Assembly (NCBI GenBank): GCA_021513695.1 | Contig: CP084166.1 | Span: forward strand, 960,001-1,024,000 | Length of the DNA: 64,000 nt | DNA from: Candidatus Heimdallarchaeum aukensis | Lineage (GTDB): Archaea > Asgardarchaeota > Heimdallarchaeia > Heimdallarchaeales > Heimdallarchaeaceae | Reading direction: 5' to 3' | Shown here: positions 44,147 through 64,000 of the stretch, piece after piece | How the letters are laid out: every line of letters starts with the position of its first letter | How positions within the stretch are numbered: position 1 is the stretch's first letter | The notes under the pieces: generated by a model | The model's database searches: none | What the model was told of the DNA's origin: nothing | The model's input: the letters and a program-made list of their open reading frames with translations, nothing else | Made by a program: the position numbers and the translations under genes

Positions 44147-46624
44147 ATGAAATTTACAAATCGGTTACAAGTACTGATTAATTCTGTAATAATTTTAAGT
44201 TTAATAACAGTAGGAATGGTTACATCTTCTGCAATTCAGATCAATTCAGAAGAGAATTCTTCTGTTAGAGAAACAATTACTGAGGATACAGTCTGGGAAG
44301 GTATAACAATCTACATTAATGAATCAATGCTTTTCAATGCCAAATTAACAATATCTAACTCAATTGTAATTTTTAAAGCAAATGCTACAAATGAGGTTAT
44401 TTTAGAAATAGGGGATACTTTAAACATAACTGACAGTCAAATATTAGCAGATGATCCTGATTACAACGGAAAAATCAAAAGTTTGCTCGGAGAAGAAATA
44501 ATTATAAGTAATTCTGAAATAAAGAATATAGATATTAGCGTCAATAGTGCAGAAGTGACTATAATTGACTCAGTTTTTGACAACTGCTATGAAGTAAAAT
44601 TCTTGACATTGCCAGAAACAAGTATTATAGCAAGAAACACTTTCAAGAATAATGAAACAGGATTATCACTTACTTACTCTCCAATAGAGTTAATAAATAA
44701 TACTTTCGAGAACTTAGATATAGGTGTATCAGTATCCTCTAGCGAAGGTATTTTGATTAAAGGAAATTCCTTTACCAACATTGCAGAAACTGCTATTTAC
44801 CAAACAAAACAGGGTGCAACAATAGAAAATAATGAGTTTACTGATGTTAATCGTGGAATAACCATTCAACAATCCAAAGCTGTATTAATTAAAGAAAATA
44901 CTTTTGAAAAATCTTATACAGCTATCATGACTCTAGACTCAAGCTATGTTACTATATCTACAAACAGTTTCGCAAACAATGAATTTAGTATTGACATGTC
45001 TGAAACTTATTATTCTGAAGTTTCAGATAACACAATAGAAAACACAACTGAAATAGCAATGCAAATACTAGAGTCAGATTATGTTGATATTCTAAATAAT
45101 GAGATAACTAATAGTTCAATTGGAATAAAATTAAATGAAAATAGAGCTTCTGCAATTCAATATAACACAATTACAGATGCTTTACTTTCCATTGATATCG
45201 AACATTCAAGATCCATCGATGTGATAGCAAATACAATTATAAACTCTGAAACAGCAATGTATATCGAAGATTCAGACAAAGCAACTTTAACTGCAAATGA
45301 TATCTTGACTTCCAATATTGGTATATCCATTTGGTCTTCAACTTCTCCTGCATTATCAAGTAACAAAATACTTGATACTAATATAGGAACAGAGTTGATA
45401 CTTGTTTCAGAAGGGTTATTACTAGGAAATGAATTTACTAACTCTCAAATGGGTATTTATGTTGTAGATACCAGTGAAACAAAGGTTGTAGATGGAACAT
45501 TAGTTAATGTTGCAGATGGTATAAAAATAGTCGAAAGTCCTAATTTTGAAGTAAGTGGAAACACTTTTGAAGACATTTCTGGAGATGCAGTAATTTTTGA
45601 TGATAGCAATGACTCTGTTGTTTATCATAATAACTTTTACAATATTACTGGTAAATATGGTAGCATAATTGATTGTATTGTTAACTTTGAATACGAAGTT
45701 TCTAATGGAACAATTCACGGTAACTACTATGAAGGAGTAGACGAAACATCAGTCTATATTGACACAGTCACTTATGAAGGAAAAGAAATTGAAATCTATG
45801 ACAATCATCCATTGACAGAAAAATACACTGTTCCTCCAGCAATAAGTGTTGTAGAAAGAGATGTACAAGATCCTGATGACACAATGATCGTAAATGTCAC
45901 AGCACAAATCTATAAACCATCAGAACTTTCAATTTCAGCATACTTAGATTACATGTCAAACTTTGATGATGATTGGACATCAGTTGAAATGACAATTGTA
46001 TCTTCTGTTGGTCAAATATACATCTATCAATCTTCTATACCTAAATTAGACTACGGACTTGAAATAACCTACAGGATTAGAGTAGTTTATGAATCTGAGT
46101 CTACTATATCAAGCAATTATACATATGTTGTCGAATACTCTGATGAAACACCTATCATCATTAATAATCCAACAGTAGTCGTAAGAGCTGAAGGTTCAGA
46201 TAAATTTACTTACACAAGTGTATACTATGATCTATACTATATAGTTGTGCAAGTTAGAGTAAAGAATCAAACAGCTAATCTCGCAAAAATAGATGGAAGA
46301 GATTATGTCAATATCTCATGGACATTAATAACAAATGAAGGAAATGAAACACATGATAACATAATGTTCTACAACACCACTACAGGAGTGTTCGAACTAG
46401 AATTAGGAAAGTTTACAGCCAATTCTAACATTACTTATCGAATATATGCAGAAGACGAACTAGGTAATTCAAGATGGACATTAGAAACCTATGAAATACA
46501 CATCACCTCTGAAACTACTGAAGAAACAGGTTTCGATAGCGTTACATTAATAGGAATAACAGCAAGTTTATTCATAATTCAAACTATAGTTGTTATTCAA
46601 AGAAGAAAAAGACAAGAAAACTAA
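44147..46624 (+). CDS. Surface protein with right-handed parallel beta-helix repeats (NosD/pectin-lyase-fold-like) and a C-terminal TGF+TM+RRKRQ anchor.
   Basis: Repeated 'NxFxNxxxGIxI…' ~22-aa units. Signal peptide. C-terminus '…TGFDSVTLIGITASLFIIQTIVVIQRRKRQEN'. Confidence 0.6.
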   Translation: MKFTNRLQVLINSVIILSLITVGMVTSSAIQINSEENSSVRETITEDTVWEGITIYINESMLFNAKLTISNSIVIFKANATNEVILEIGDTLNITDSQILADDPDYNGKIKSLLGEEIIISNSEIKNIDISVNSAEVTIIDSVFDNCYEVKFLTLPETSIIARNTFKNNETGLSLTYSPIELINNTFENLDIGVSVSSSEGILIKGNSFTNIAETAIYQTKQGATIENNEFTDVNRGITIQQSKAVLIKENTFEKSYTAIMTLDSSYVTISTNSFANNEFSIDMSETYYSEVSDNTIENTTEIAMQILESDYVDILNNEITNSSIGIKLNENRASAIQYNTITDALLSIDIEHSRSIDVIANTIINSETAMYIEDSDKATLTANDILTSNIGISIWSSTSPALSSNKILDTNIGTELILVSEGLLLGNEFTNSQMGIYVVDTSETKVVDGTLVNVADGIKIVESPNFEVSGNTFEDISGDAVIFDDSNDSVVYHNNFYNITGKYGSIIDCIVNFEYEVSNGTIHGNYYEGVDETSVYIDTVTYEGKEIEIYDNHPLTEKYTVPPAISVVERDVQDPDDTMIVNVTAQIYKPSELSISAYLDYMSNFDDDWTSVEMTIVSSVGQIYIYQSSIPKLDYGLEITYRIRVVYESESTISSNYTYVVEYSDETPIIINNPTVVVRAEGSDKFTYTSVYYDLYYIVVQVRVKNQTANLAKIDGRDYVNISWTLITNEGNETHDNIMFYNTTTGVFELELGKFTANSNITYRIYAEDELGNSRWTLETYEIHITSETTEETGFDSVTLIGITASLFIIQTIVVIQRRKRQEN

Positions 46625-52699: not shown

Positions 52700-52920
52700 C
52701 TGTTTCAAAAACTTGAAGTTGTTTTTATTTTTTTCTCGATTTAAGAAAAAAGAGAAGTCAAAGATTTTTACAATTGAACAGTAATAGTCTAAGTTCGACA
52801 ATAATAGTCTATATCCGATAGTAATAATAAACACTTTATTAATACAACGATAAATTGAAAAGTTTTATATTTGTGTGTTATTTTATTAAAGTGGCAAAGA
52901 AAAATAAAGGAAGAAGAAAA

Positions 52921-53361
52921 GTGATTGAGTCAGTCTATATTATTTCCCGAACAGGATTACCTTTACTTTATGTAGATTTTGTTTCACAAGAAGATGATGT
53001 AGATGCCGTAACTTTATTTTCTGGAATAATTTCAGCGATACAAGTAGCAATGGCTGAAATTGATGTAGGTGTTCCGTCATTCTTTGATACAGAAAAAAAT
53101 GAAATCTTCATGAATGTAACAGAAAAATTTGCTATTGCTGTAGTAAAAAACCAAGAACCAATAGATAGAAATGAAATGAATAAACTAATGGATCAAATTC
53201 AAACCCTAGTATCATTTGATCAAGAAGTGGAAGATTTTAGTACCATTAGTGATGAAACAAAAAATAAAATTTCCAAAAAAATAAGGGAAATAGTTAATAA
53301 CTGGGAAGACTATATTAGCGAGAGAGAAGCAACAAAAAGAATAACGGAATCATTATGGTAA
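52921..53361 (+). CDS. Roadblock/LC7 (MglB-like) domain protein.
   Basis: 'VIESVYIISRTGLPLLYVDF…DAVTLFSGIISAIQVAMAEIDVG…EIFMNVTEKFAIAVVKN' follows the roadblock beta-alpha-beta-beta pattern. GTG 52921 is the likely start; the ORF track gives 52855. Confidence 0.55.
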   Translation: MIESVYIISRTGLPLLYVDFVSQEDDVDAVTLFSGIISAIQVAMAEIDVGVPSFFDTEKNEIFMNVTEKFAIAVVKNQEPIDRNEMNKLMDQIQTLVSFDQEVEDFSTISDETKNKISKKIREIVNNWEDYISEREATKRITESLW

Positions 53362-53378: not shown

Positions 53379-54122
53379 ATGGTTGTCTGGCAAAATAAAA
53401 TTCCAATAAGTTCTATAATCTTTGAACTAGTGGTTGTTATTGCGCTAACTTTTATGGTAATAACAATTTTTGCAAGGTATTTTGCAAAAAGAAAAAAACC
53501 TGTGTTATATCTGGCTTTAGCATACCTGTTTTACGATCTTGCAACTTTAACAAGCTGTATCGGTCGGTGGTTAGGTTATTTCTCTTCAATTCCCTATACC
53601 GAGTTCTCATATACTGACTTTACAACCTTATTTGCATATGTGCTAATGGCTATAGCGAACGTATTTATTGCTGCATTTATTGACACAATATTTATTCAAA
53701 AAGGAGTAGATTTTGTCGCATTCTTTGCTATATTGAGCGGAATAATAATAGGTATGATAGTCCCTATACTGAATTTTGAATGGGGAAACATGAGATCACA
53801 TGTCTTAATAGTATCTTACCATTTAATACTTTCAATATTAATATTTCTAATACTAGCAATTGTGTCTTTAAGAGAAGCTAAAATGAATAAAAAGAAAATA
53901 GCAAAAATAGGTTTCGCTCTAATTGGAACCTATGCTATATTCATGATTCTATTATTTGTTTCATTTACATCAGATTCACTGCTTATAACTTATGTAGACG
54001 CATTTTCAAAGGGATACTCTCCTGCATATTACTTTGGATGGACACTTTTAGTTATAGGATCAATAATAGGTTATCTTGGACTAATTATGCCTAAATGGTT
54101 CGTAAAGATGCTTAAGTTATAA
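53379..54122 (+). CDS. Seven-TM membrane protein.
   Basis: Seven hydrophobic helices of ~20 aa counted by eye; 4-nt gap to the roadblock gene. Confidence 0.5.
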   Translation: MVVWQNKIPISSIIFELVVVIALTFMVITIFARYFAKRKKPVLYLALAYLFYDLATLTSCIGRWLGYFSSIPYTEFSYTDFTTLFAYVLMAIANVFIAAFIDTIFIQKGVDFVAFFAILSGIIIGMIVPILNFEWGNMRSHVLIVSYHLILSILIFLILAIVSLREAKMNKKKIAKIGFALIGTYAIFMILLFVSFTSDSLLITYVDAFSKGYSPAYYFGWTLLVIGSIIGYLGLIMPKWFVKMLKL

Positions 54123-54593: not shown

Positions 54594-55313
54594 ATGCGTA
54601 ATGTGGGTTTTATGAACAAATCATCCGTGAAAAGAAATTTAATGATTGTAAGAGAACAGGATGTTGTTGTTACTGGCGGTGTGGTTTTTATTGGAGATGG
54701 ACATACTGGCAAAACGCATACAGCTCTTAATCTTGTAAGAAATAAGGATAGATATAAGAAAACAGACTTGATCTCGAAGTCAATAAATGTAGAATTTGAC
54801 TATTTTGTTTATCAATCTAATTACCAACAGTATAAATTTACAATAAGTGCACAATTGTTTATATTTCCCGGGCAAAAAGGACGAGCGAAAAAAGGAGAAG
54901 GGTTAGCATTTGAGGATGCTCTAGACCTGTATTTTGATGTTAGAACGGTGAAAGAGGTTATTGTTCTAATACTAACTTTCAATCTTACAGATATAGCTAC
55001 ATTTCAAAACTTAGAATATTGGGTTAAAACAGCTATAGAGAATAATTTAGTCTCAGAAGCAACTAACATAATTTTGTTAGGTACTCACTACGATAAGAAA
55101 TCAAACATTGCTGTGAATGAAACAGATATTATACATGGAAAAAAATTTGTTCAAGAACAAATTGCTAATGAATTGAATATTGATTTTCCTCTGAAACAGA
55201 TCACTGAAGTGAATATATCAAATTTGACAGAAGAAGGTATCGAAAATTTAATTGGAGCGATTATAGACGCTTTTTTCAACGTTTTTAATATAGATGAGTT
55301 TAATTTAATTTAG
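54594..55313 (+). CDS. Divergent small GTPase (Ras-superfamily-like).
   Basis: P-loop 'GDGHTGKT'; G3-like 'IFPGQ'; G4-like 'LLGTHYDKK'; G5-like 'ISNL'. Confidence 0.6.
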   Translation: MRNVGFMNKSSVKRNLMIVREQDVVVTGGVVFIGDGHTGKTHTALNLVRNKDRYKKTDLISKSINVEFDYFVYQSNYQQYKFTISAQLFIFPGQKGRAKKGEGLAFEDALDLYFDVRTVKEVIVLILTFNLTDIATFQNLEYWVKTAIENNLVSEATNIILLGTHYDKKSNIAVNETDIIHGKKFVQEQIANELNIDFPLKQITEVNISNLTEEGIENLIGAIIDAFFNVFNIDEFNLI

Positions 55314-55334: not shown

Positions 55335-58300
55335 ATGAAGTTTCAAAAGCATATAATAATCACAATAAATTTTTTATTAATTTTACAGTCATTGTTATAT
55401 ATTCAAAATATTAGCAATTCACAAAAAGATAGACAGAATATTACTCAGATTATCCCAGGAAACATTGAAAACAATCAACAAGAGAGTATTTATCATTCAG
55501 ATGTTTCCTCAACAAATGTACATACAACTCTTACTCAAGGAACAAACAAAACTTTTGGTTTCTTTACGCAAGATAGCTATGTAAATTTAGATTCTGATGG
55601 AAATGTGTTTCAATGGGAAAAGTATGATGTTGTAAAAGATACAGGTGATAATAGTGTTTATGCTGATTTTGCAATGGATTACTCTTATTCTTATACTTGG
55701 CCAAGTTCTCCTAATAGCTATGTTCCATTAATTGATATTGAAACAGGAACACAACTAGCTTCAACCTTTAGTCCTCCTTTTTCAGAGACTACTTATCTAT
55801 CAGGAAAAGTTTACTTCTTAACATATATTTCCACTTATGTATCAAGTTTTACCATTACTTTAACTCTCAGAATTCGATTGTGGTTATATAATCCTAATGA
55901 TGGAGGACTTACAGAAATTTTAACTATCGAATCTGTTCTTCCCGATAATTCTGATTTAACACAACGTGTTTATTCTTCAACTTTAGAAGATAAAGTTACC
56001 ATCCCCTCAGGTTATAGATTAAAAGTAACTTATGAAGCAAAAACGAGCAGAATAGATAGAGCTGCTTATGTTCATCTTGAAACTGGAGAATATTCAGATG
56101 GTGACCAAGTTAACTGGCAGATAAATGACGCAGAGTATTCTAACACTTATACTTTAAATGACGTTACTTCAGCTCTAGGTGTACAGTTGTATATGTATGA
56201 TGAAACATATCCTACTATTTCAATTTCTGGAGCAGAAAACAATACGATTTATTACGATACTAATGAAATAACAATCAGTACATCTGGAGCAGTAAGTAAT
56301 TCCTACAAATGGGACAGTAATTCATATACTGCTTTTGATCCTCCTGTGAATACAACTCTCCCTTCATCAACAGGTTGGCATTATTTGTATATTCAAGCAC
56401 TAGATGAATATGATAACAAAAATGAAGTAGTATACAAAATAGGCTATGAAAGTTCTAGCATAGTTTTACATAATGCAAACAATAATTCTTTAGTTCCAAA
56501 TAATTTTCTTCTTAACTTTAGTTTGTCTGGATACGATTCAGCGCAATATGCTTGGGATAGTGGAGGAAATTATACTTTTTCTGATCCTTATGACATTTCA
56601 GTACCAGATTTCTCAGGAGAGCACACACTCTATATTTATACAGTAAGCAGCTTTGGAGAAAATAAAACTGTTTATGTTTTTGAAGTTGATAACAGCCCGC
56701 CCTTAATCTCCTTAAGAGACTTAAGCAACGATACTACACAACCTACAAACAAGAAAATTGAACTGAATATTACAGATCAAACTTCAACTATTGAAGTTCT
56801 ATATAATTGGGATAATGTTGCTAATTCAACCTGGAGCCCATTAGAAGGAACAATCTACCAAACTTTTGCTCCAGATACTGATGGTTTTCATTGGCTCAAT
56901 GTATATGCAAACGATAGTTTTGGTCATATTATTGATGTACATTACAGATTTAATATTAGTTCAGACTATTTGCTGGTAGAATTAAGAACAATGATAAATG
57001 ACAGTTATTATTACGGAGGAAACACAGTTGAGGTTACGATTACAGGTACAAATGGGACAATAAAGTATCAGTGGGACTCAAATGGATTCAAAGATGGGGT
57101 AACAGTTGATTCAATCTTGTCTTTATCAGGTTCAGAATCATTACCGAAAGACCTTGGAGTGCATTATCTTACAATAATAGTTGGAGATGTAGATGACAAT
57201 CCCAAATCAACTTTGTTTAAATTTACAATTGACCAAGAAAATCCTGTAGTTTCTAATTTTGGAAATTACAATAATTCAAGATTACACAGTTCCACAATAA
57301 TTGATCTTGAAATAACAGATAATTTTACTTTAAGTAGTGAAATAGAAGCATGGGTATCAATAGATGGAGGAGGAAATATATCTTTTACGTATCCCTATGA
57401 TATTAAAATATCTTCTTTAGAAGATGGAGTTCATAATATTACTGTTTTTGCCTTTGATATTGCGCGAAATAATGTTTCTTGCTTAATAATTTTTGAAATT
57501 GATACGACAGCTCCAGAAATAGATATTGTTTCCATTCAAGGGTTAGAAGTTTCTTCTAGCGGTGTTTCATATATTCCCGGAAATGCAGCAATTGAATGCT
57601 CTTTTGTTGATGCAGACCCCGAAATTTATCACTTTTATTCATGGAATAACTCAGCTTTTACACTATTTGCTGGAAATACTTTTAATTTACCTGATACTGA
57701 TGGAAACGCAACCCTACGCATTTTAGCTAATGATACATTAGGAAATGAGAAAATTTTAACATTAGATCTTTTTATAGACACTACTCCTCCTCAATTGTCT
57801 ATACTGTTTCCTAATAACTACTCTAAAATCAATGAAGCGACACCTTTATTGTTTTTTGCTAATGATAGTGCAAGTGACACCATTTCTTCAATTTCTGCAA
57901 AATGGGACCAATTTCTAGAAGGAAAAATAGACCTTTCTCCACCTTATTTTACAATTTATTTATCAAGTCTTAAAAAACTCTATGAAGAGTTATCAGTTGC
58001 AGAGTTATATATTGATGCAAAAGATATTCTAGGAAATAATTTTACGTATATTTATTCATTTAATCTTGATTTTTCTCCGCCTTCCTACAATTTAGTAGGT
58101 GCCCAAAATAATACTTTTGTAAGAAGTGATACAATCCTTCAATTTGAAAATTTAAGTAATGACTTAATGAAGTTCGTTTATTATTGGGATTCTAATGATA
58201 TATCTATCTTAGATGATCCGTGGACTATATCAATACCAAATAATGATGGGGTACATAATCTTACAGTAATTCTTTACGATAACACAGGTGAGGGATATTA

Positions 58301-59942
58301 CCCAAATTGGGTTAAATCATTTTACACTTTTGTTGTTGATGATATTGGGATTGAAATTACTAGTCCGTCAAGTTTTTCCAATAATACAGAAGTTGGAATT
58401 GTATATAAACAATCATTTACCTTTTCTGTTGATGTCTACGATACAGCAGACAATCAAATTATAGATAATCTTAATTTTGTAATTTTAAACAATACACTGA
58501 ATCTAGAAATAGAGAATGAAACCTTAGATGGAAAAACATATACGATAACCATTCATGGTACAAATGTTGGATCAACAAGATTAATTTTTCAGTTTTCTAA
58601 GGGAAATTCGAATAAACATCAAATTGTTGTTCCTCTTACGATTGAAAAGAAAGAAGGAACAGTTTCATTGTTAGGGACAAGCGTCTTAAGCGTGATATAT
58701 GAAGAAAATTTCACTATAATACTGAATTTAGAGGATGAAAACTCTAATCTTTTAAATATTACCCGGGTGACTGTTAATGGTAGTTTAGTGAGCGATTTTA
58801 TCTATTTAGATGAATATCATGCTATACAATTTAATTATTCTTCAAGAGAAACAATAGGAAAAGGAGAATATAATCTGTTAGTTAATATTGAATCTAATTA
58901 TTACTATGGAGAAAAAATAATTGGCATTGAGGTTAAACCTATCCCTATTATTCTAAGTTTATCAGTCTCAAGTTATACTGTAATTGAAGGTTCTCAAGTT
59001 GCAATTACAGGAACTCTTACTTTTACAAATGGGACTCCGATACCTTCTATAACTCTATACTTTTCTATATATATAGTCTATAAGAATCAGTCCAATAATA
59101 ATGTCATGGCTCTGCCTTCAGAATACGGAAGTAAGGTTGTTTTCTCAGGATTAACTAATTCCTCTGGACAAGTAACGATTGCTTTTGAAATGACTTCAGA
59201 GATAGATTATATTTCAGTTGATTGTTCTTTTGGAGGGAGTAATATCTTTGACACAGTTTACTATGAAATGGAGGAATATATTTATTCTATACCTACTCCA
59301 AAACTTCCAACTTGGATATTATACACAATAATTGGTGGAAGTATTATATTGGCAGCAATAATCTCCTTTGTTGTTTATAAGCTTACTAGACCTAAACCAT
59401 TTGATGAGATATTAAATTCAATTTCTGATAATGATATCGTGATGAACATGACCCGTATCTGCCCTGGTGTTGTTCTATCAATCTTTGATCAACGCAAAGG
59501 TGCAATTCCATTAGTGTCTGATCATTCATTGGATTATAGTTACAGTGGAAGAATTAGGATAGGGCTTGAAAACTTTATGTTGAAAATTTCAGATCAAGCT
59601 TACTCTTCATTGGGCTTTGAAGAGCACCATTCTGGGCGTAGAACAGGAACAATTACTCTACCAAATGAAGGACTTGTAGGTTTTATTCATGGGATACAAT
59701 TGGAAAATAAAGCTGCGAGAGGAGGTTTTGAAAACCTTTCACTTATTGTGCTTGTAGAAAATGAGTACGGGACAATGTTACTTAGTTATCAAGAATACCT
59801 GTATCCCTTAATTGATGAGTTAATTTCCATGCTAAAAAATAAGAAACCGTTGGAGGATATTGAAGAACAATTATCGAATATACGTAGTCAAGCAACAAAA
59901 ACAGTTTTAGCTTCATTAGAATATGAAAATGCAATGTCTTAA
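55335..59942 (+). CDS. Giant (1535 aa) type-I membrane protein. It has a signal peptide, at least 7 extracellular Ig-like repeats each with a W-D-S motif, a single TM (59310-59390) and a ~180-aa cytoplasmic roadblock/longin-like domain.
   Basis: Repeated '…Y(K/A/Q)WDSN…' modules; TM 'WILYTIIGGSIILAAIISFVVYKL'; cytoplasmic '…ICPGVVLSIFDQRKGAIPLVSD…LSLIVLVENEYGTMLL…'. Confidence 0.6.
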   Translation: MKFQKHIIITINFLLILQSLLYIQNISNSQKDRQNITQIIPGNIENNQQESIYHSDVSSTNVHTTLTQGTNKTFGFFTQDSYVNLDSDGNVFQWEKYDVVKDTGDNSVYADFAMDYSYSYTWPSSPNSYVPLIDIETGTQLASTFSPPFSETTYLSGKVYFLTYISTYVSSFTITLTLRIRLWLYNPNDGGLTEILTIESVLPDNSDLTQRVYSSTLEDKVTIPSGYRLKVTYEAKTSRIDRAAYVHLETGEYSDGDQVNWQINDAEYSNTYTLNDVTSALGVQLYMYDETYPTISISGAENNTIYYDTNEITISTSGAVSNSYKWDSNSYTAFDPPVNTTLPSSTGWHYLYIQALDEYDNKNEVVYKIGYESSSIVLHNANNNSLVPNNFLLNFSLSGYDSAQYAWDSGGNYTFSDPYDISVPDFSGEHTLYIYTVSSFGENKTVYVFEVDNSPPLISLRDLSNDTTQPTNKKIELNITDQTSTIEVLYNWDNVANSTWSPLEGTIYQTFAPDTDGFHWLNVYANDSFGHIIDVHYRFNISSDYLLVELRTMINDSYYYGGNTVEVTITGTNGTIKYQWDSNGFKDGVTVDSILSLSGSESLPKDLGVHYLTIIVGDVDDNPKSTLFKFTIDQENPVVSNFGNYNNSRLHSSTIIDLEITDNFTLSSEIEAWVSIDGGGNISFTYPYDIKISSLEDGVHNITVFAFDIARNNVSCLIIFEIDTTAPEIDIVSIQGLEVSSSGVSYIPGNAAIECSFVDADPEIYHFYSWNNSAFTLFAGNTFNLPDTDGNATLRILANDTLGNEKILTLDLFIDTTPPQLSILFPNNYSKINEATPLLFFANDSASDTISSISAKWDQFLEGKIDLSPPYFTIYLSSLKKLYEELSVAELYIDAKDILGNNFTYIYSFNLDFSPPSYNLVGAQNNTFVRSDTILQFENLSNDLMKFVYYWDSNDISILDDPWTISIPNNDGVHNLTVILYDNTGEGYYPNWVKSFYTFVVDDIGIEITSPSSFSNNTEVGIVYKQSFTFSVDVYDTADNQIIDNLNFVILNNTLNLEIENETLDGKTYTITIHGTNVGSTRLIFQFSKGNSNKHQIVVPLTIEKKEGTVSLLGTSVLSVIYEENFTIILNLEDENSNLLNITRVTVNGSLVSDFIYLDEYHAIQFNYSSRETIGKGEYNLLVNIESNYYYGEKIIGIEVKPIPIILSLSVSSYTVIEGSQVAITGTLTFTNGTPIPSITLYFSIYIVYKNQSNNNVMALPSEYGSKVVFSGLTNSSGQVTIAFEMTSEIDYISVDCSFGGSNIFDTVYYEMEEYIYSIPTPKLPTWILYTIIGGSIILAAIISFVVYKLTRPKPFDEILNSISDNDIVMNMTRICPGVVLSIFDQRKGAIPLVSDHSLDYSYSGRIRIGLENFMLKISDQAYSSLGFEEHHSGRRTGTITLPNEGLVGFIHGIQLENKAARGGFENLSLIVLVENEYGTMLLSYQEYLYPLIDELISMLKNKKPLEDIEEQLSNIRSQATKTVLASLEYENAMS

Positions 59943-60049
59943 CAAATTTTTTATAGAAAAATAAAACTAATGCTTTTTTTATTTTTTATTTGCACCTAGG
60001 AAAATGTTATTTATTGTTAACGAACTATTGGTATAATAGGAGAAGCAAT

Positions 60050-61462
60050 ATGTCTTATCTTTTAGATGAGTTAAAGAGGAAAAAACAAGCTGAAACCGAC
60101 GAAACCATTGATAAAATACTTCTAATGGGACTTCAAGAAGCTGGAAAAACAGCTATTAAAGATGTTGTTTTTTTTGATAAAGATCCTGAAGAAGTTGTAG
60201 AATATATGGCAACAACTCATTATCAAAGACAAATCATTGGAGACAAAAAAAAGAATTTACTTATCGATTCAGGAGGACAAGAAACTTACTGGAACGAAGC
60301 AGTAACATATTTTCGCTACTTGATTTTTTCTAATGCTAAAATCCTTATTTGGGTGGTAGATTTAACTCATCCTGAACTTTTTGATGAATCAGAAAGAAGA
60401 TTTAGCTTCACAATTAGACAATTTAAGAAAGAGAACAAAGATGGAAAGGTCTATGTTTTTTGTCATAAAGCTGATGTTGTTGAACCAGAAAAACTAGATG
60501 CAGTAGTTGAGCATGTAAAAGAACTGTTATCTGATCCCAAATTTGAGATTGAATTTAAAATTACATCAATATTCAAAAAAAATGAGTTAAAGCAAATAAT
60601 GAATAAAATTCTCGAAGAATCTTCAATTGATCAAGAACAAATAGAACTTGTCACTGATGTTGAAAAGAAAATTGAAGAAAGCCCTGAATTTGTTAAATTT
60701 CTAGAAGAACATAAAGCAGATCCACGAGTTAAAGAACTCATGGAATATATTAAACCTCAACCAAAACAATATTTACCTTCATTTGGGAAAGTAGAAGTAG
60801 ATGTGAACCTTGAAAATTATGGTATTATTGAAATCATTATACTTGATAAAGAAACATTGAAGCCAGCAATAGGAGCTTCATCACATATCATCTCTAATAA
60901 AAAACAATCATTTGAATATATTCTGGCTCTTAATTATTTTAAAAACTTAATAAAATCAAAAGAACAGAAAATTGAAGCTCTTGGAAGTACCTTTAGTTAT
61001 CCTGAAGGTGAAGTTCATGCATTGATTTTTAATTTGAAGAATAGTTACATTATAATTACCTCATTTAATGAAATAGATGAAAACATAAAAAAGGAATTAT
61101 ACAAATTTATTCTCAAATTTTCAGATGAAATGGTAAAAGAAAAATCACTCGTTAAAGAAGAAAGCATTTCTAAACCCCCTAGTATAGCAACTGAACAAAG
61201 CGTTGAAATAGAACAATCAATAGCCCAAGAAGTGAAAAAAGATGAAAAGAAGGTTTTTGCAGAAGAAGTTTCTTCAACGCAAAAAGAAACTTTAGTCAAA
61301 GAAGATGAAGAACAAAAACAAATGATAAAACAAGTCTCCTCTGAAAAAGCTAAATTAGAAGAAAAGAAAAATGGAGTAGGTTTAGATATTACAGAGAGAG
61401 ACATAACTAAAATAGCTAAATTTCTATATGATCAGCTGGATAAAGAAAAAAAAGAAGAGTGA
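60050..61462 (+). CDS. Rag/Gtr-like GTPase with a C-terminal roadblock-like domain and an acidic/lysine-rich tail.
   Basis: G1 'GLQEAGKT', G3 'DSGGQE', G4 'CHKADV' (HKxD as in Rag/Gtr), 'ITSIF' after the G domain. CRD '…YGIIEIIILD…VHALIFNLKNSYIIITSF'. SD AGGAG before ATG 60050. Confidence 0.7.
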   Translation: MSYLLDELKRKKQAETDETIDKILLMGLQEAGKTAIKDVVFFDKDPEEVVEYMATTHYQRQIIGDKKKNLLIDSGGQETYWNEAVTYFRYLIFSNAKILIWVVDLTHPELFDESERRFSFTIRQFKKENKDGKVYVFCHKADVVEPEKLDAVVEHVKELLSDPKFEIEFKITSIFKKNELKQIMNKILEESSIDQEQIELVTDVEKKIEESPEFVKFLEEHKADPRVKELMEYIKPQPKQYLPSFGKVEVDVNLENYGIIEIIILDKETLKPAIGASSHIISNKKQSFEYILALNYFKNLIKSKEQKIEALGSTFSYPEGEVHALIFNLKNSYIIITSFNEIDENIKKELYKFILKFSDEMVKEKSLVKEESISKPPSIATEQSVEIEQSIAQEVKKDEKKVFAEEVSSTQKETLVKEDEEQKQMIKQVSSEKAKLEEKKNGVGLDITERDITKIAKFLYDQLDKEKKEE

Positions 61463-62686
61463 TTAAACTGGTCTACTTTTTCCAATACTTCTGTATTCAC
61501 AGTTATTGTCAAGAAGAATTGGAATCTCTCTCATTTCAGTTATACATTCATGAATTGGGTATAATTCTATAGTTGTAGTACCAAATCCTTTCTTAATTTG
61601 AATTGCATGCTCAAAATTATCAGCATTCTCTAAAGCTACCTCTAATATTGATTTATGTAATTCTCTTCCACAAATGTCACATTTAAAGTAAATTTGCTTA
61701 TTGATCTTGGTTTCTAATTGTTCTTTGTTTAATATGTTATGAGATTCGAAAAAGGTAATCAATTTATCTTTAACCTTTATTTTAGCAACAGAGATGACTT
61801 CTTCTGTTTTGAACATTTTTCTCATTTGATCACAAATTTCATGAAAAGTAGAAATCTGCTGATTTAACTGTTCTTGCGAAGAAAAAACTGAAGTAATGAC
61901 AAGGTCTTCTTCGATTTCTCTAATAAATATCCTTGAGTCACTCAAAGAAAAGACAATATAATTCAAATCAAGACTAGGTGAGTAGATCTTAACTAGTTCA
62001 GAGCGTAATCTGGAAAGATTGAGATTAACTTCTTTTTCTGGTTCAGAGTATAAAACCAAACCTTTGGAAGTTGATAGGGTTAGAAGATTTAGATTATATT
62101 CTGATACTATCTCTTGAATGTTAGAAGCTTTTGTTAGGTCTCTAGGATAAACAACAGAAAAAATTCTTTGCATTGCATCCCATATATTCTCTTCAAAGAT
62201 AGAAGTTTCATAGATTTCAGAATTGGGATACTTGCTCAACTCAAAAATATCTTTAATTGAACGTGTAATAGCAGCCCTTTTGTCAACAGGAACAACATCC
62301 ATTTTATGGGCGAAAACATAGATTCTAGCGCTAGAACCAATTTTTTTAAGATTATCCAAAGTAAGATCAAAATAATATTTAGAACGCATGATGTTAGAAG
62401 CATCAGAAATATCAACAACATAAATCAAAGCTTTAAGGTCACTAAAAGTTCTTTCAGTATATTTCTCAAAAAGCTCATTTAAATAAGAAGATTGACCTCC
62501 TACATCAACAAGATTAATAGAACTTCCTGCAAAATTGAAAAGCTTACGATTAATTCGAACTGTAGCAGGATTAAGAGAAGTTGCTTGAGGAGCAAAGCCT
62601 TCAAAAACAACTTGACGAATAGAAGTTTTACCAGATTGAGATAACCCCAGAATAACAATTTTTGATTGAAGTGAACGATCATTCAT
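61463..62686 (-). CDS. Rag/Gtr-like GTPase with a C-terminal roadblock-like domain and a terminal zinc ribbon.
   Basis: G1 'GLSQSGKTS', G3 'LVDVGGQ', 'LIYVVDI', G4 'AHKMDV'. '…YETSIFEENIWDAMQRIFSVVYPR' parallels RagA '[21 protein letters not shown]'. 'CDICG…' zinc ribbon. Confidence 0.8.
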   Translation of the reverse strand: MNDRSLQSKIVILGLSQSGKTSIRQVVFEGFAPQATSLNPATVRINRKLFNFAGSSINLVDVGGQSSYLNELFEKYTERTFSDLKALIYVVDISDASNIMRSKYYFDLTLDNLKKIGSSARIYVFAHKMDVVPVDKRAAITRSIKDIFELSKYPNSEIYETSIFEENIWDAMQRIFSVVYPRDLTKASNIQEIVSEYNLNLLTLSTSKGLVLYSEPEKEVNLNLSRLRSELVKIYSPSLDLNYIVFSLSDSRIFIREIEEDLVITSVFSSQEQLNQQISTFHEICDQMRKMFKTEEVISVAKIKVKDKLITFFESHNILNKEQLETKINKQIYFKCDICGRELHKSILEVALENADNFEHAIQIKKGFGTTTIELYPIHECITEMREIPILLDNNCEYRSIGKSRPV

Positions 62687-63344: not shown

Positions 63345-64000
63345 CTACTGGGACTGCAACCAATGGCTGAGCCCTAGGCAAACAGTGAAATGGGTAGAAC
63401 TGTATCTTTGACCAGTGAGGTAATCAGTGATAGTGTTTCCTTGAGGACTGAAAAGAGCACCAAGGAACTTACGAGCGATATTCATTGCTCCTGTGAGGTC
63501 AGAGTGGAAAGTGTAATTGCAAGAAGAACAATGAACTAAACCTCTTACTGGACGGACAACTTTCCTTCCACAACGAGCACAGTGAGAAGATGTCCCTTTT
63601 TCCTCTATCGTTAATATTCGGTGAGGGTCAAAACCTCTTAATATTAGTGCCCGACGGAGAAGAGTAAGAACAAGGTAAAAATTCCACTGATGAAGTTTCC
63701 TGCGAAACTTACGAGTACTTTTACCTTTCTCTTTTCCTTTCTCCTCGCGAACATGTTTAGGGTAACCTACAACGACGAAAAGGTCATACATTCGCGCATA
63801 GGTCTCTATCGTCTGCACAACCTCACTTACAAATTGGTAAATATAGGCTCGTTTAACGTTTCTATATCTTCTTCGAAGAAGACTAAGAAAACGATAAACT
63901 TGATGTTTTTTACCCGACTGGTCGTTTAAAGCTGCTTTTCTCTGAAGACGGGAAAGTTTGACTTTATATCGATGGTTGACTCTATTCCACTGTTTGGTAT
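63345..64000 (-). CDS. tnpB: TnpB-like (IS200/IS605 OrfB family) protein, C-terminal ~215 aa. The gene continues past the 3' window edge.
   Basis: Minus-strand frame is open to the window end ('TKQWNRVNHRYKVKLSRLQRKAALNDQSGKK…'). Zinc finger 'CARCGRKV…CSSCN'; RuvC-III-like 'SDLTGAMNIA'. Confidence 0.65.
   Translation of the reverse strand, partial: TKQWNRVNHRYKVKLSRLQRKAALNDQSGKKHQVYRFLSLLRRRYRNVKRAYIYQFVSEVVQTIETYARMYDLFVVVGYPKHVREEKGKEKGKSTRKFRRKLHQWNFYLVLTLLRRALILRGFDPHRILTIEEKGTSSHCARCGRKVVRPVRGLVHCSSCNYTFHSDLTGAMNIARKFLGALFSPQGNTITDYLTGQRYSSTHFTVCLGLSHWLQSQ

Follow-up and report, generated by a model that had tools for sequence, protein, structure and literature searches.

A receptor-like protein of Candidatus Heimdallarchaeum aukensis with predicted Ig-like repeats and a predicted folliculin-type longin tail, encoded among Ras-like and Rag-like GTPase genes

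The window analysed here, a stretch of 64,000 nucleotides from Candidatus Heimdallarchaeum aukensis (GenBank assembly GCA_021513695.1, contig CP084166.1, positions 960,001 to 1,024,000, forward strand), contains a block of four genes: a divergent Ras-like small GTPase, a large receptor-like protein and two Rag-like GTPases (Table 1). The open reading frame of the receptor-like protein has exactly the limits given in a preliminary description of this DNA, made from the sequence alone. The Ras-like gene ends 21 bp before the receptor start; its product keeps the P-loop, has a G3 motif without Asp (x-P-G-Q) and carries LGTH as G4. Both downstream genes can be assigned from their sequences to the Rag/Gtr GTPases, on account of Gtr1_RagA matches above the cut-off, G4 motifs of the HKxD type and their pairing. 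The best PDB matches of Rag-like 1 (G4 HKAD) are RagA/Gtr1, followed by RagC, and its gene may in fact begin at the ATG at 60050. The spacer between receptor and Rag-like 1 is T-rich and holds a TATA-like element, so that co-transcription of the two genes is not established.

Table 1. Genes and protein features of the block, in window coordinates
Feature	Position	Strand	Description	Basis
Ras-like small GTPase	54594..55313	+	239 aa, divergent, first gene of the module	Pfam Ras E 2.5e-6, above cut-off
Receptor-like gene	55335..59942	+	1535 aa, ATG at 55335, stop ends at 59942; predicted type-I, cytoplasmic longin tail	
Signal-peptide-like N-terminus	55335..55412	+	aa 1-26, MKFQK, then hydrophobic stretch	hydropathy; predicted
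Jelly-roll beta-sandwich	55518..56201	+	aa ~62-289, N-terminal, candidate ligand-binding head	
Ig-like repeats	56199..58358	+	aa 289-1008, eight in tandem, ~90 aa each	repeat HMM; Pfam Big_13; model
Membrane-proximal beta-rich region	58359..59312	+	aa 1009-1326	weak Pfam matches: Big_3_5 E 0.05, Big_5 E 0.12
TM helix	59313..59381	+	aa 1327-1349, single, followed by KLTRPKP	Kyte-Doolittle peak 2.38
Cytoplasmic domain	59382..59939	+	aa 1350-1535, 186 aa; two juxtamembrane helices, then complete longin domain	
GP-motif hairpin	59484..59510	+	F1384-D-Q-R-K-G1389-A-I-P1392, between b1 and b2	family consensus FDQxxGPxP
Candidate arginine finger	59715..59735	+	A-R1462-G-G-F-E-N, b4-b5 loop	invariant Arg; hhalign
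Rag-like GTPase 1	59990..61462	+	490 aa, acidic low-complexity tail	Pfam Gtr1_RagA E 1e-23
Rag-like GTPase 2	61463..62686	-	407 aa, convergent with Rag-like 1, G4 HKMD	Pfam Gtr1_RagA E 2e-32; PDB Gtr1 E 1e-23

Hydropathy analysis of the receptor reveals two hydrophobic segments only, at aa 5-26 and aa 1327-1349. The first lies in a signal-peptide-like N-terminus, whose charged-then-hydrophobic character is shared by 13 of 14 full-length homologues; the second is the single TM helix, which had been correctly placed before an intracellular domain of about 180 residues. Every related gene whose open reading frame reaches upstream of its longin domain, distant members included, encodes a TM segment (score >2.1) about 20 aa ahead of that domain. 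Moreover, N-glycosylation sequons are enriched in the ectodomain only (39 observed, 22.8 +/- 4.0 expected). A type-I topology with the repeats outside, as was initially suggested, is supported by this enrichment, by the signal-like N-terminus kept in homologues and by the positive charges after the TM, and the reversed orientation is not borne out. Homologues of 1450-1640 aa have been found in Heimdallarchaeia, with identities of 25-43% in the ectodomain and 49-59% in the longin tail. When searched as a whole against Pfam, the 1535-aa protein gives nothing at E <= 0.1, Robl_LC7 (PF03259) included.

The extracellular portion had been described as an array of Ig-like modules of about 100 aa, each of them with a W-D-S motif. 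The internal repeats match one another down to E 2e-10 in piecewise BLAST, and an HMM seeded from six W-D-S-anchored units delimits eight units (289-380, 371-460, 452-548, 543-641, 645-730, 730-823, ~825-916 and 912-1008), somewhat shorter than was proposed. The unit at 645-730, which lies outside the seed, scores E 9e-9, and that at ~825-916 is weak (E 5e-4). The motif, in the form Y-x-W-[DN]-[SN], is present in six of the eight units rather than in each, and an A-x-D-x-x-G-N-like motif occurs in all eight. The Ig-like nature of the repeats, of the Big_13 type, is supported by sequence and model: segment 642-1008 matches Big_13 (PF19077) with E 5.1e-7 and 30.6 bits (cut-off 27), the homologue P0047 likewise exceeds the cut-off (31.1 bits, E 3.5e-7), and repeat 1 is modelled as a seven-strand sandwich with PKD, FN3 and Ig domains as structural neighbours. 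The membrane-proximal region, conserved among homologues (E 1e-17 to 1e-64), probably comprises about three further Ig-like modules, judging by its sequence. The ectodomain folds of the family are Ig, PKD and CBM-like, and one match is an archaeal S-layer protein. A disordered linker (aa 27-61) precedes the jelly-roll domain.

The cytoplasmic tail is modelled with a pLDDT of 92.5, in accordance with the folded beta-alpha-beta domain that had been expected, and disorder is not borne out. Its elements follow the order b1 b2 a1 b3 b4 b5 a2 a3 with a five-stranded sheet, and the receptor ends right after a3. Foldseek matches of the tail include a Loki longin, GATOR1, the active FLCN GAP complex, FNIP2, Lst4, Npr2 and C9orf72-SMCR8, and there are no roadblock proteins among the top 50. 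According to the model, the tail is a longin domain of the folliculin/NPRL2/SMCR8 type, with folliculin, FNIP/Lst4, NPRL2 and C9orf72/SMCR8 as its closest solved relatives. Roadblock/LC7 domains show the order alpha-beta-beta-alpha-beta-beta-beta, with the N-terminal helix over the sheet and no C-terminal alpha2-alpha3 pair. A roadblock/LC7 domain like those of LAMTOR2/3, MglB or the Rag C-termini is ruled out by the longin order, the structural neighbours and the lack of a Robl_LC7 match; of the roadblock or longin fold first envisaged, the longin alternative has thus held and the Ragulator/LAMTOR/MglB-type roadblock has not. Pfam Folliculin (PF11704), NPR2 and NCBIfam models do not match the tail, and a PDB sequence search is also empty. 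Alignment with the folliculin family profile by hhalign gives E 4.6e-4 and 3.2e-4 at probabilities of 33-39% over 62-65 aligned columns, and likeness to folliculin at the sequence level is marginal.

A GP motif adjoining an arginine finger is reported to be specific to GAP longins (PMC12290439). The hairpin of the tail lies at the location of this motif, the end of the b1-b2 loop as given in the same work; its F, Q, G and second P are invariant family-wide, even in members 18-27% identical, and its first Pro is replaced by Ala in the receptor studied here and in about a quarter of the homologues (G-A-x-P). The arginine finger of such longins is expected in the b4-b5 loop, as in FLCN Arg164, NPRL2 Arg78 and SMCR8 Arg147. 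R1462 sits in model loop 110-116, is invariant in all 50 copies (44 loci) and in a broad alignment, and falls in three hhalign comparisons on FLCN Arg164, the catalytic finger of folliculin (PMC9473554). Conservation among these 50 copies is highest for the patterns FDQxxG(P/A)xP and R-G-G-x-E-N, and both are kept in the Hodarchaeota and Kariarchaeaceae members of 18-27% identity. Every paralogue, tandem copies too, retains the Arg. The tail appears, from these alignments, to carry both hallmarks of GAP-type longins where eukaryotic longin GAPs have their catalytic pocket.

The family comprises about 130 sequence clusters, found in Heimdallarchaeia only, in which a TM and a longin tail are borne by surface proteins of 300-5800 aa (the largest has 5809 aa) and the tail stands invariably at the extreme C-terminus behind the TM. 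No prior description of this architecture or of its synteny was found in the literature. The position of the receptor gene between a small GTPase and a Rag-like pair, already pointed out for this window, recurs elsewhere: the order Ras-like GTPase, receptor (1-3 copies), Rag-like 1 and convergent Rag-like 2 is kept in 28 of 41 related species-level loci. Among the Rag-linked loci, all 16 with enough upstream sequence have a Ras-like orthologue as the gene directly before the receptor (E 1e-64 to 1e-77), and in 27 of 28 the last receptor copy is followed after 25-107 bp by a Rag-like 1 orthologue; in L040 its usual place is occupied by the Rag-like 2 gene. The convergent Rag-like 2 orthologue follows Rag-like 1 in at least 19 loci with enough flanking sequence, and the metagenome loci L001-L003 also link the receptor to Ras-like and Rag-like genes. 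Genes beyond the four-gene block are not conserved among related loci, and there is no conserved partner longin gene nearby. A GTPase neighbour is absent in 12 of the 41 loci and in a whole distant branch (L044-L046), which implies that the tail either does not require a linked Rag or works in trans. Whether Rag or the Ras-like GTPase is the partner of the tail cannot be read from synteny.

From sequence and models, the protein is best read as a type-I receptor or adhesin whose arginine-finger longin would regulate the GTPases encoded next to it, with a GAP function towards the Rag-like pair as the most probable mode (probability roughly 0.5). The analysis shows the architecture, indicators of topology, the class of fold, the conserved motifs and the synteny; from these we infer GTPase binding, GAP catalysis, substrate identity and regulation of the tail by the ectodomain. 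A stalk made up of about eight Ig repeats of the Big_13 type and of membrane-proximal beta modules would display a jelly-roll head outside the cell, while the longin tail would keep the adjacent GTPases at the membrane and speed their GTP hydrolysis via R1462. Its substrate would most likely be the neighbouring Rag-like heterodimer; the Ras-like GTPase encoded upstream may be a further one. Through engagement or clustering, the ectodomain may thereby control which nucleotide the Rag-like pair carries, a form of outside-in signalling, and the several receptor paralogues of a genome, tandem and unlinked, may feed into a single Rag-like pair.

Folliculin (FLCN, yeast Lst7) together with FNIP (yeast Lst4) constitutes a longin-DENN GAP for RagC/Gtr2, and eukaryotic longin GAPs are longin-DENN heterodimers with the Arg in one subunit only. 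The receptor has neither a DENN domain nor a distinct Arg-less partner subunit; moreover, its longin forms the C-terminus of a surface protein that crosses the membrane once, whereas FLCN is soluble and recruited to lysosomes. The lack of DENN, the Arg present in all paralogues and the G-A instead of G-P in this copy speak against a GAP. The NPRL2-NPRL3 (Npr2-Npr3) pair of GATOR1/SEACIT, a longin GAP for RagA/Gtr1, is a weaker structural match than FLCN, and GATOR1 is soluble and requires DEPDC5, whereas the receptor tail is part of a membrane protein. In Asgard archaea, NPRL2-like longins were reported earlier as fusions to two-component domains, not as surface receptors, and FLCN/SMCR8-type longins of Heimdallarchaeia, with both motifs and an equal structural arrangement, have been described recently (Traffic 2025, PMC12290439). 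That study asks whether Rag or Arf-related GTPases are the partners of these longins; it presents no TM/ectodomain architecture or gene neighbourhood (the word 'transmembrane' occurs 0 times), and its 15 proteins may include the receptor family. In the Lokiarchaeota Roadblock-Longin protein (PDB 8yqg), 12-17% identical, the longin has a roadblock domain as its fusion partner instead of a TM and ectodomain, and the PDB sequence search gives no match between this protein and the receptor tail.

Ragulator (LAMTOR1-5), the EGO complex and bacterial MglB share the fold superfamily of the tail and act as membrane-proximal platforms for Rag or MglA GTPases. Folliculin and GATOR1 are regulators (GAPs) of Rags, whereas Ragulator is a passive tether, and most longin and roadblock platforms act passively or GEF-like (TRAPP, Mon1-Ccz1, Ragulator). 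In line with this, the tail might be a platform that recruits the Rag-like dimer by domain packing, non-catalytic or GEF-like. Such a role is considered unlikely, because the element order and nearest neighbours of the tail are those of GAP-type longins, not of roadblock proteins, and because a passive scaffold needs neither the GP-type hairpin nor the Arg aligned with FLCN Arg164, both invariant down to 18% identity. Longin order, hairpin and invariant Arg make folliculin/GATOR1 a better analogy than the Ragulator-style one drawn in the preliminary description.

Regulation of the upstream Ras-like GTPase instead of, or besides, the Rag-like pair, with the Rag-like dimer as downstream effector or platform, would have a parallel in C9orf72-SMCR8, whose targets are Arf/Rab. 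Linkage to the receptor is no looser for the Ras-like gene than for the Rag genes (16 of 16 loci, and a 21-bp gap in the window), L026 retains the Ras-like gene and the receptor with no Rag within 10 kb, and the G3 motif without Asp is compatible with partner dependence. This reading is nevertheless judged improbable: the structurally closest eukaryotic relatives, FLCN and NPRL2, act on Rags, and the reduced locus L002/L003 has the Ras-like gene broken into fragments and an intact Rag-like 1 beside the longin protein. It is very unlikely that the receptor has a primarily structural or adhesive role at the cell surface, in association with the S-layer or in cell-cell contact, with a tail used for sorting, anchoring or attachment to the cytoskeleton and with neighbouring GTPases that are no direct partners, since gene order is kept despite ectodomains of 25-43% identity and non-conserved flanking genes, and the tail is far more constrained than the ectodomain, with catalytic-type residues kept; huge and highly variable ectodomains (up to 5809 aa), the Ig, PKD and CBM-like folds with their S-layer match, and the 12 loci and distant branch without a GTPase neighbour would agree with it.

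Folliculin switches off Rag GTPases in the human nutrient-sensing pathway, and a longin tail with Rag-like neighbours in most related genomes hints at an archaeal precursor of that pathway with a direct connection to the cell exterior. It is tentatively proposed, as a possibility with somewhat less than even odds, that Heimdallarchaeia possess outside-in signalling at the plasma membrane, in which Ig-repeat receptors contain a folliculin-type longin with an arginine finger and by means of it directly set the nucleotide state of a Rag heterodimer; the lysosomal Rag-FLCN/GATOR1 nutrient sensing of eukaryotes would then go back to a one-polypeptide system at the cell surface, with many paralogues converging on one Rag pair. 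Plexins are single-pass receptors with an intracellular GAP domain that regulates a small GTPase. Their catalytic fold is RasGAP-like and not a longin, so that the likeness is one of analogy alone, without homology; the logic is shared, namely Ig-type domains arrayed outside the cell, a single TM, and a GTPase-regulating cytoplasmic domain whose evolution is much slower than that of the ectodomain.

Longin-type GAPs (folliculin (FLCN), GATOR1 and C9orf72-SMCR8) are, like the Rag GTPases, among the core components of eukaryotic lysosomal nutrient signalling. GAP-like longins are also known in Asgard archaea, from which NPRL2-like and FLCN-like proteins have already been reported; the sole Asgard FLCN-like operon then found, in the same comparative-genomics survey, held a non-Rag GTPase and no Rag (bioRxiv 10.1101/2020.10.19.343400). 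Furthermore, the small GTPase genes of strain MK-D1 generally lie outside operons with longin or roadblock genes (PMC10933270), and the GTPase partners of the Heimdallarchaeia longins bearing a GP motif and an arginine finger were explicitly left open in a 2025 study (PMC12290439). The module formed by the receptor, a Ras-like GTPase and two Rag-like GTPases supplies the missing genomic link, a folliculin-type longin beside a Rag-like pair in a conserved block, and does so in an unexpected format, in that a giant surface receptor carries the longin as its tail on the cytoplasmic side. The literature searched, which was incompletely covered, describes neither a transmembrane Ig-repeat receptor ending in a longin nor its conserved linkage to a Rag-like pair. 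The transmembrane longin receptor and its Rag synteny thus appear to be new, with the caveat that the 15 Asgard longins of PMC12290439 may include members of this family.

The window is AT-rich (G+C approximately 30%), and the receptor reading frame proposed in the preliminary description was borne out in limits and length; a 179-aa fragment from a Candidatus Heimdallarchaeaceae archaeon MAG is 99% identical to its C-terminus. Hydropathy analysis shows two hydrophobic segments only, a signal-like one at aa 5-26, following MKFQK, and a strong transmembrane (TM) helix at aa 1327-1349, directly followed by KLTRPKP. A charged and then hydrophobic N-terminus is common to the full-length homologues. 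N-glycosylation sequons are enriched before the TM helix (39 vs 22.8 ± 4.0 in shuffled sequences), with no such enrichment in the tail (2 observed vs 1.5). These indirect indicators, N-terminus, TM helix and sequons, are all consistent with a type-I topology that would leave most of the receptor outside, and they agree with the earlier placement of the repeats outside the cell and of a single TM helix before a cytoplasmic tail.

Self-BLAST of the whole receptor gave the identity match only and no internal repeats; the repeats were resolved instead by piecewise BLAST, with internal similarity down to E 2e-10, and by a repeat HMM seeded with six W-D-S-centred segments. The HMM delimited eight tandem units of ~90 aa, together spanning aa 289-1008, including a non-seed unit at E 9e-9 and one weak unit at E 5e-4. 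Thus, the W-D-S modules initially described are real tandem repeats, of ~90 rather than ~100 aa and with W-[DN]-[SN] in only 6 of the 8 units. Their Ig-like nature is supported by a Big_13 match above the gathering score on segment 642-1008 (Pfam, E 5e-7, 30.6 vs 27 bits); Pfam and NCBIfam gave no match on the whole receptor, and aa 1009-1326 yielded no more than weak Ig-like hints. The region aa 27-380, modelled from an alignment of 15 homologues, reached a pLDDT of 85, with its first ~35 residues disordered. The ectodomain thus comprises Ig-like repeats, probably topped by a binding head. Ectodomains differ across the family, one member carrying Laminin_G_3 and DUF2341, and within the close subfamily identity is 49-59% in the tail and 25-43% in the ectodomain; such a contrast between a changing exterior and a constant interior marks a family of sensors or receptors.

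The tail has 43 close homologues (44-66% identity), all from Heimdall-labelled MAGs except one in a Thor-labelled bin, and its strongly conserved blocks include SIFDQxKGPIPL, NFLLKIxDQAYSSLGFEE and ARGGFENLSLIVL. From this 43-homologue alignment AlphaFold2 gave a highly confident model (pLDDT 92.5, pTM 0.89), in which two juxtamembrane helices precede the element order β1 β2 α1 β3 β4 β5 α2 α3, that of a longin and not of a roadblock domain. Independently, a Foldseek search with the model again retrieved the GAP-longin set, with no roadblock protein among the top 50. The roadblock/longin-like domain announced in the preliminary description was therefore assigned to the right superfamily and has a confidently predicted fold, but a LAMTOR/MglB-type roadblock was not matched: judged by the predicted structure, the tail is specifically related to the longins that belong to the three longin-GAP complexes of eukaryotes, rather than to Ragulator (Lst4 is taken here as the orthologue of FNIP, and Lst7 as FLCN). 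No Pfam or NCBIfam model covers the tail, the NCBIfam search with the tail alone being likewise without a match, and all database entries of its homologues read 'hypothetical protein'. In the PDB, neither phmmer with the tail nor a search with the family profile gave a relevant match, the sole one being spurious and to the TM helix; the link to folliculin therefore rests on fold comparison and on a marginal profile-profile alignment.

The signatures of GAP longins are a GP motif at the β1-β2 turn and an adjacent arginine finger, both of which occur in some Heimdall longins (PMC12290439). In the receptor family the β1-β2 turn reads FDQxxG(P/A)xP and the β4-β5 loop A-R-G-G-x-E-N. None of the 50 copies from 44 loci departs from F, Q, G, the second P or the Arg, and these residues are equally invariant in a broad alignment including members only 18-27% identical. 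The adjoining RRxG block, in contrast, is not conserved in the distant branch, and in the copy in the window, as in about one quarter of the homologues, the GP motif has Ala where its first Pro would stand. Comparison with a single human FLCN sequence, 92-95% identical over its full length to annotated folliculins, was weak (E 0.16) and placed R1462, the candidate arginine finger, on the LARGF arginine. Two profile-profile comparisons with an alignment of 18 folliculins reached E values of 4.6e-4 and 3.2e-4, at a probability of 33-39%, and both set ARGGxEN on ARGFQR, that is, R1462 on FLCN Arg164, experimentally established as the catalytic finger (PMC9473554). Taken alone, this sequence link is marginal; fold match, invariance pattern and sequence together make a persuasive case, short of proving activity, that the tail has the same kind of active site as folliculin.

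The neighbourhood was scanned in one genome per GTDB species (41 loci), the window proteins being searched against all ORFs of these loci. In 28 loci an orthologue of Rag-like 1 follows the last receptor copy on the same strand within ~110 bp (L040 is a rearranged exception), and a convergent orthologue of Rag-like 2 comes next in 19 loci whose flank is long enough. Upstream of the receptor, an orthologue of the 239-aa Ras-like GTPase is present in 16/16 Rag-linked loci with sufficient sequence on that side. The same gene order was found in three metagenome loci (L001-L003). No other window neighbour recurs in any of the 41 loci, so the conserved unit consists of exactly four genes. Four loci (L013, L024, L027 and L029) have two or three tandem receptor genes upstream of a single Rag-like pair, all copies keeping the GP-type hairpin and the Arg; such copies could conceivably pair with each other, in the way that FLCN heterodimerises with FNIP. 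In two of the metagenome loci (L002 and L003) the module is reduced, with the Ras-like gene in two fragments upstream, Rag-like 1 intact downstream and Rag-like 2 as a fragment of 83 aa, and may represent a system in decay or one pared down to a minimum.

Features of the window and of related loci
Feature	Location	Strand	Description
Beta_helix/NosD-type protein	window 44147-46624	+	825 aa
168-aa protein	window 52855-53361	+	weak Robl_LC7, E 0.007; beta-beta-alpha-beta-beta-beta pattern
247-aa protein	window 53379-54122	+	multi-pass membrane protein, directly after the 168-aa protein
Ras-like GTPase	window 54594-55313	+	module gene
Receptor	window 55335-59942	+	1535 aa; longin tail
Receptor-Rag-like 1 spacer	window 59943-59989		47 bp, T-rich, runs of 6-7 T, TTTATA-like element
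Rag-like 1	window 59990-61462	+	module gene
Rag-like 2	window 61463-62686	-	module gene, convergent
157-aa ORF	window 63345-63818	-	Cas12f1-like TNB (TnpB zinc-finger) domain, Pfam E 1e-9
Reduced module	L002 and L003 9337-13164		258-aa protein: short ectodomain, TM and longin
Locus without Rag	L026 4806-10579		Ras-like gene; receptor in two ORFs (609 and 1006 aa); Rag-like gene absent from the 10 kb downstream
Beta-helix protein	L028 13137-14333	-	beside unlinked receptor paralogue
Distant-branch block	L044 1-13519		Hodarchaeota/Hodarchaeales, Kariarchaeaceae (three blocks); no nearby Rag-like gene
Distant-branch block	L045 1-14605		as above
Distant-branch block	L046 2219-27261		as above

Receptor paralogues without a GTPase neighbour occur, unlinked, at 12 of the 41 loci, near which only ABC transporters, PadR, beta-helix proteins and a housekeeping DRG-like GTPase were found, with no alternative GTPase partner; by isolate names, each genome has one Rag-linked locus and one to three extra receptors. 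An exhaustive profile search with the longin tail (1.84 billion cluster representatives, E < 1e-3) matched 131 clusters, from fragments to proteins of 5809 aa, with the domain at the extreme C-terminus in 131/131, and retrieved no eukaryotic protein. A TM helix lies 25-30 residues ahead of the longin domain in all sampled distant members, those named being Heimdallarchaeota, Hodarchaeales or Kariarchaeaceae. The distant-branch block comprises a giant protein (2352-5809 aa in L045 and L046; at least 1964 aa in L044, where the contig start cuts the gene), another protein with a longin tail (~1550 aa) and one of ~960-1000 aa; in L044 the Arg is kept in both longin tails.

Both Rag-like proteins exceed the Pfam Gtr1_RagA threshold; assignment to RagA-like and RagC-like types was tried, and Gtr1/RagA was the best PDB match for both. 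The Rag-like 1 ORF opens at TTG and its earliest ATG lies 60 nt downstream; Rag-like 1 may be transcribed from a promoter of its own, and its product may be shorter than the listed 490 aa. Given the T-rich spacer with its TATA-like element, receptor and Rag-like 1 may or may not be co-transcribed. The Ras-like GTPases of the module (window and orthologues in L005-L042) conserve the P-loop, lack the Asp of G3 DxxG, which reads I/F-x-P-G-Q, and have LGTH at the expected NKxD; they may be atypical switches.

Beyond the demonstrated receptor architecture, fold class, motif conservation and synteny, a mechanism can be proposed in which the tail would contact the co-encoded GTPases at the membrane, with R1462 serving as arginine finger, and ectodomain engagement, for example clustering or dimerisation, would control its activity; the best structural match of the tail was itself solved as a dimer. 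By analogy, the substrate is most likely to be the Rag-like pair, because the closest structural relatives, FLCN and NPRL2, are Rag GAPs. One main rival is that the real substrate is the Ras-like GTPase: synteny fits both equally, and L026 is the sole locus, among those with enough downstream sequence, to pair a Ras-like gene and a receptor without a Rag.

The other main rivals dispense with GAP activity. The tail could be a non-catalytic, Ragulator-like tether, as the preliminary description proposed; the roadblock relatives of such a tether are missing from the top 50 fold matches, and the catalytic-type arginine is invariant. Alternatively, the receptor could be mainly a structural adhesin, with its tail serving some other purpose, a reading to be set beside the same invariance and the Rag linkage. 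To our knowledge, all longin GAPs have a DENN domain and an Arg-less partner, whereas the Heimdall receptor tail is without either; this difference, the Rag-less paralogues, the marginal folliculin sequence link and the T-rich receptor-Rag-like 1 spacer count against the favoured GAP reading. The question of the partner is now directly testable, since three or four small recombinant proteins suffice. If the GAP reading is true, Rag regulation by longin GAPs would be older than eukaryotes, and its first site would have been the cell surface, not an endomembrane.

Finally, some other genes of the window deserve mention. The 168-aa protein was considered as a partner longin of the tail family and rejected, with no detectable relation (hhalign E 0.13) and no PDB match; neither it nor the 247-aa protein is conserved beside the module in the 41 loci, and both were discarded as parts of the system. 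The 157-aa ORF just past the Rag-like pair is apparently what is left of a truncated TnpB of the IS200/605 type. A beta-helix protein is encoded upstream in the window, and such proteins recur by unlinked receptor paralogues at L018, L028, L041 and L043.
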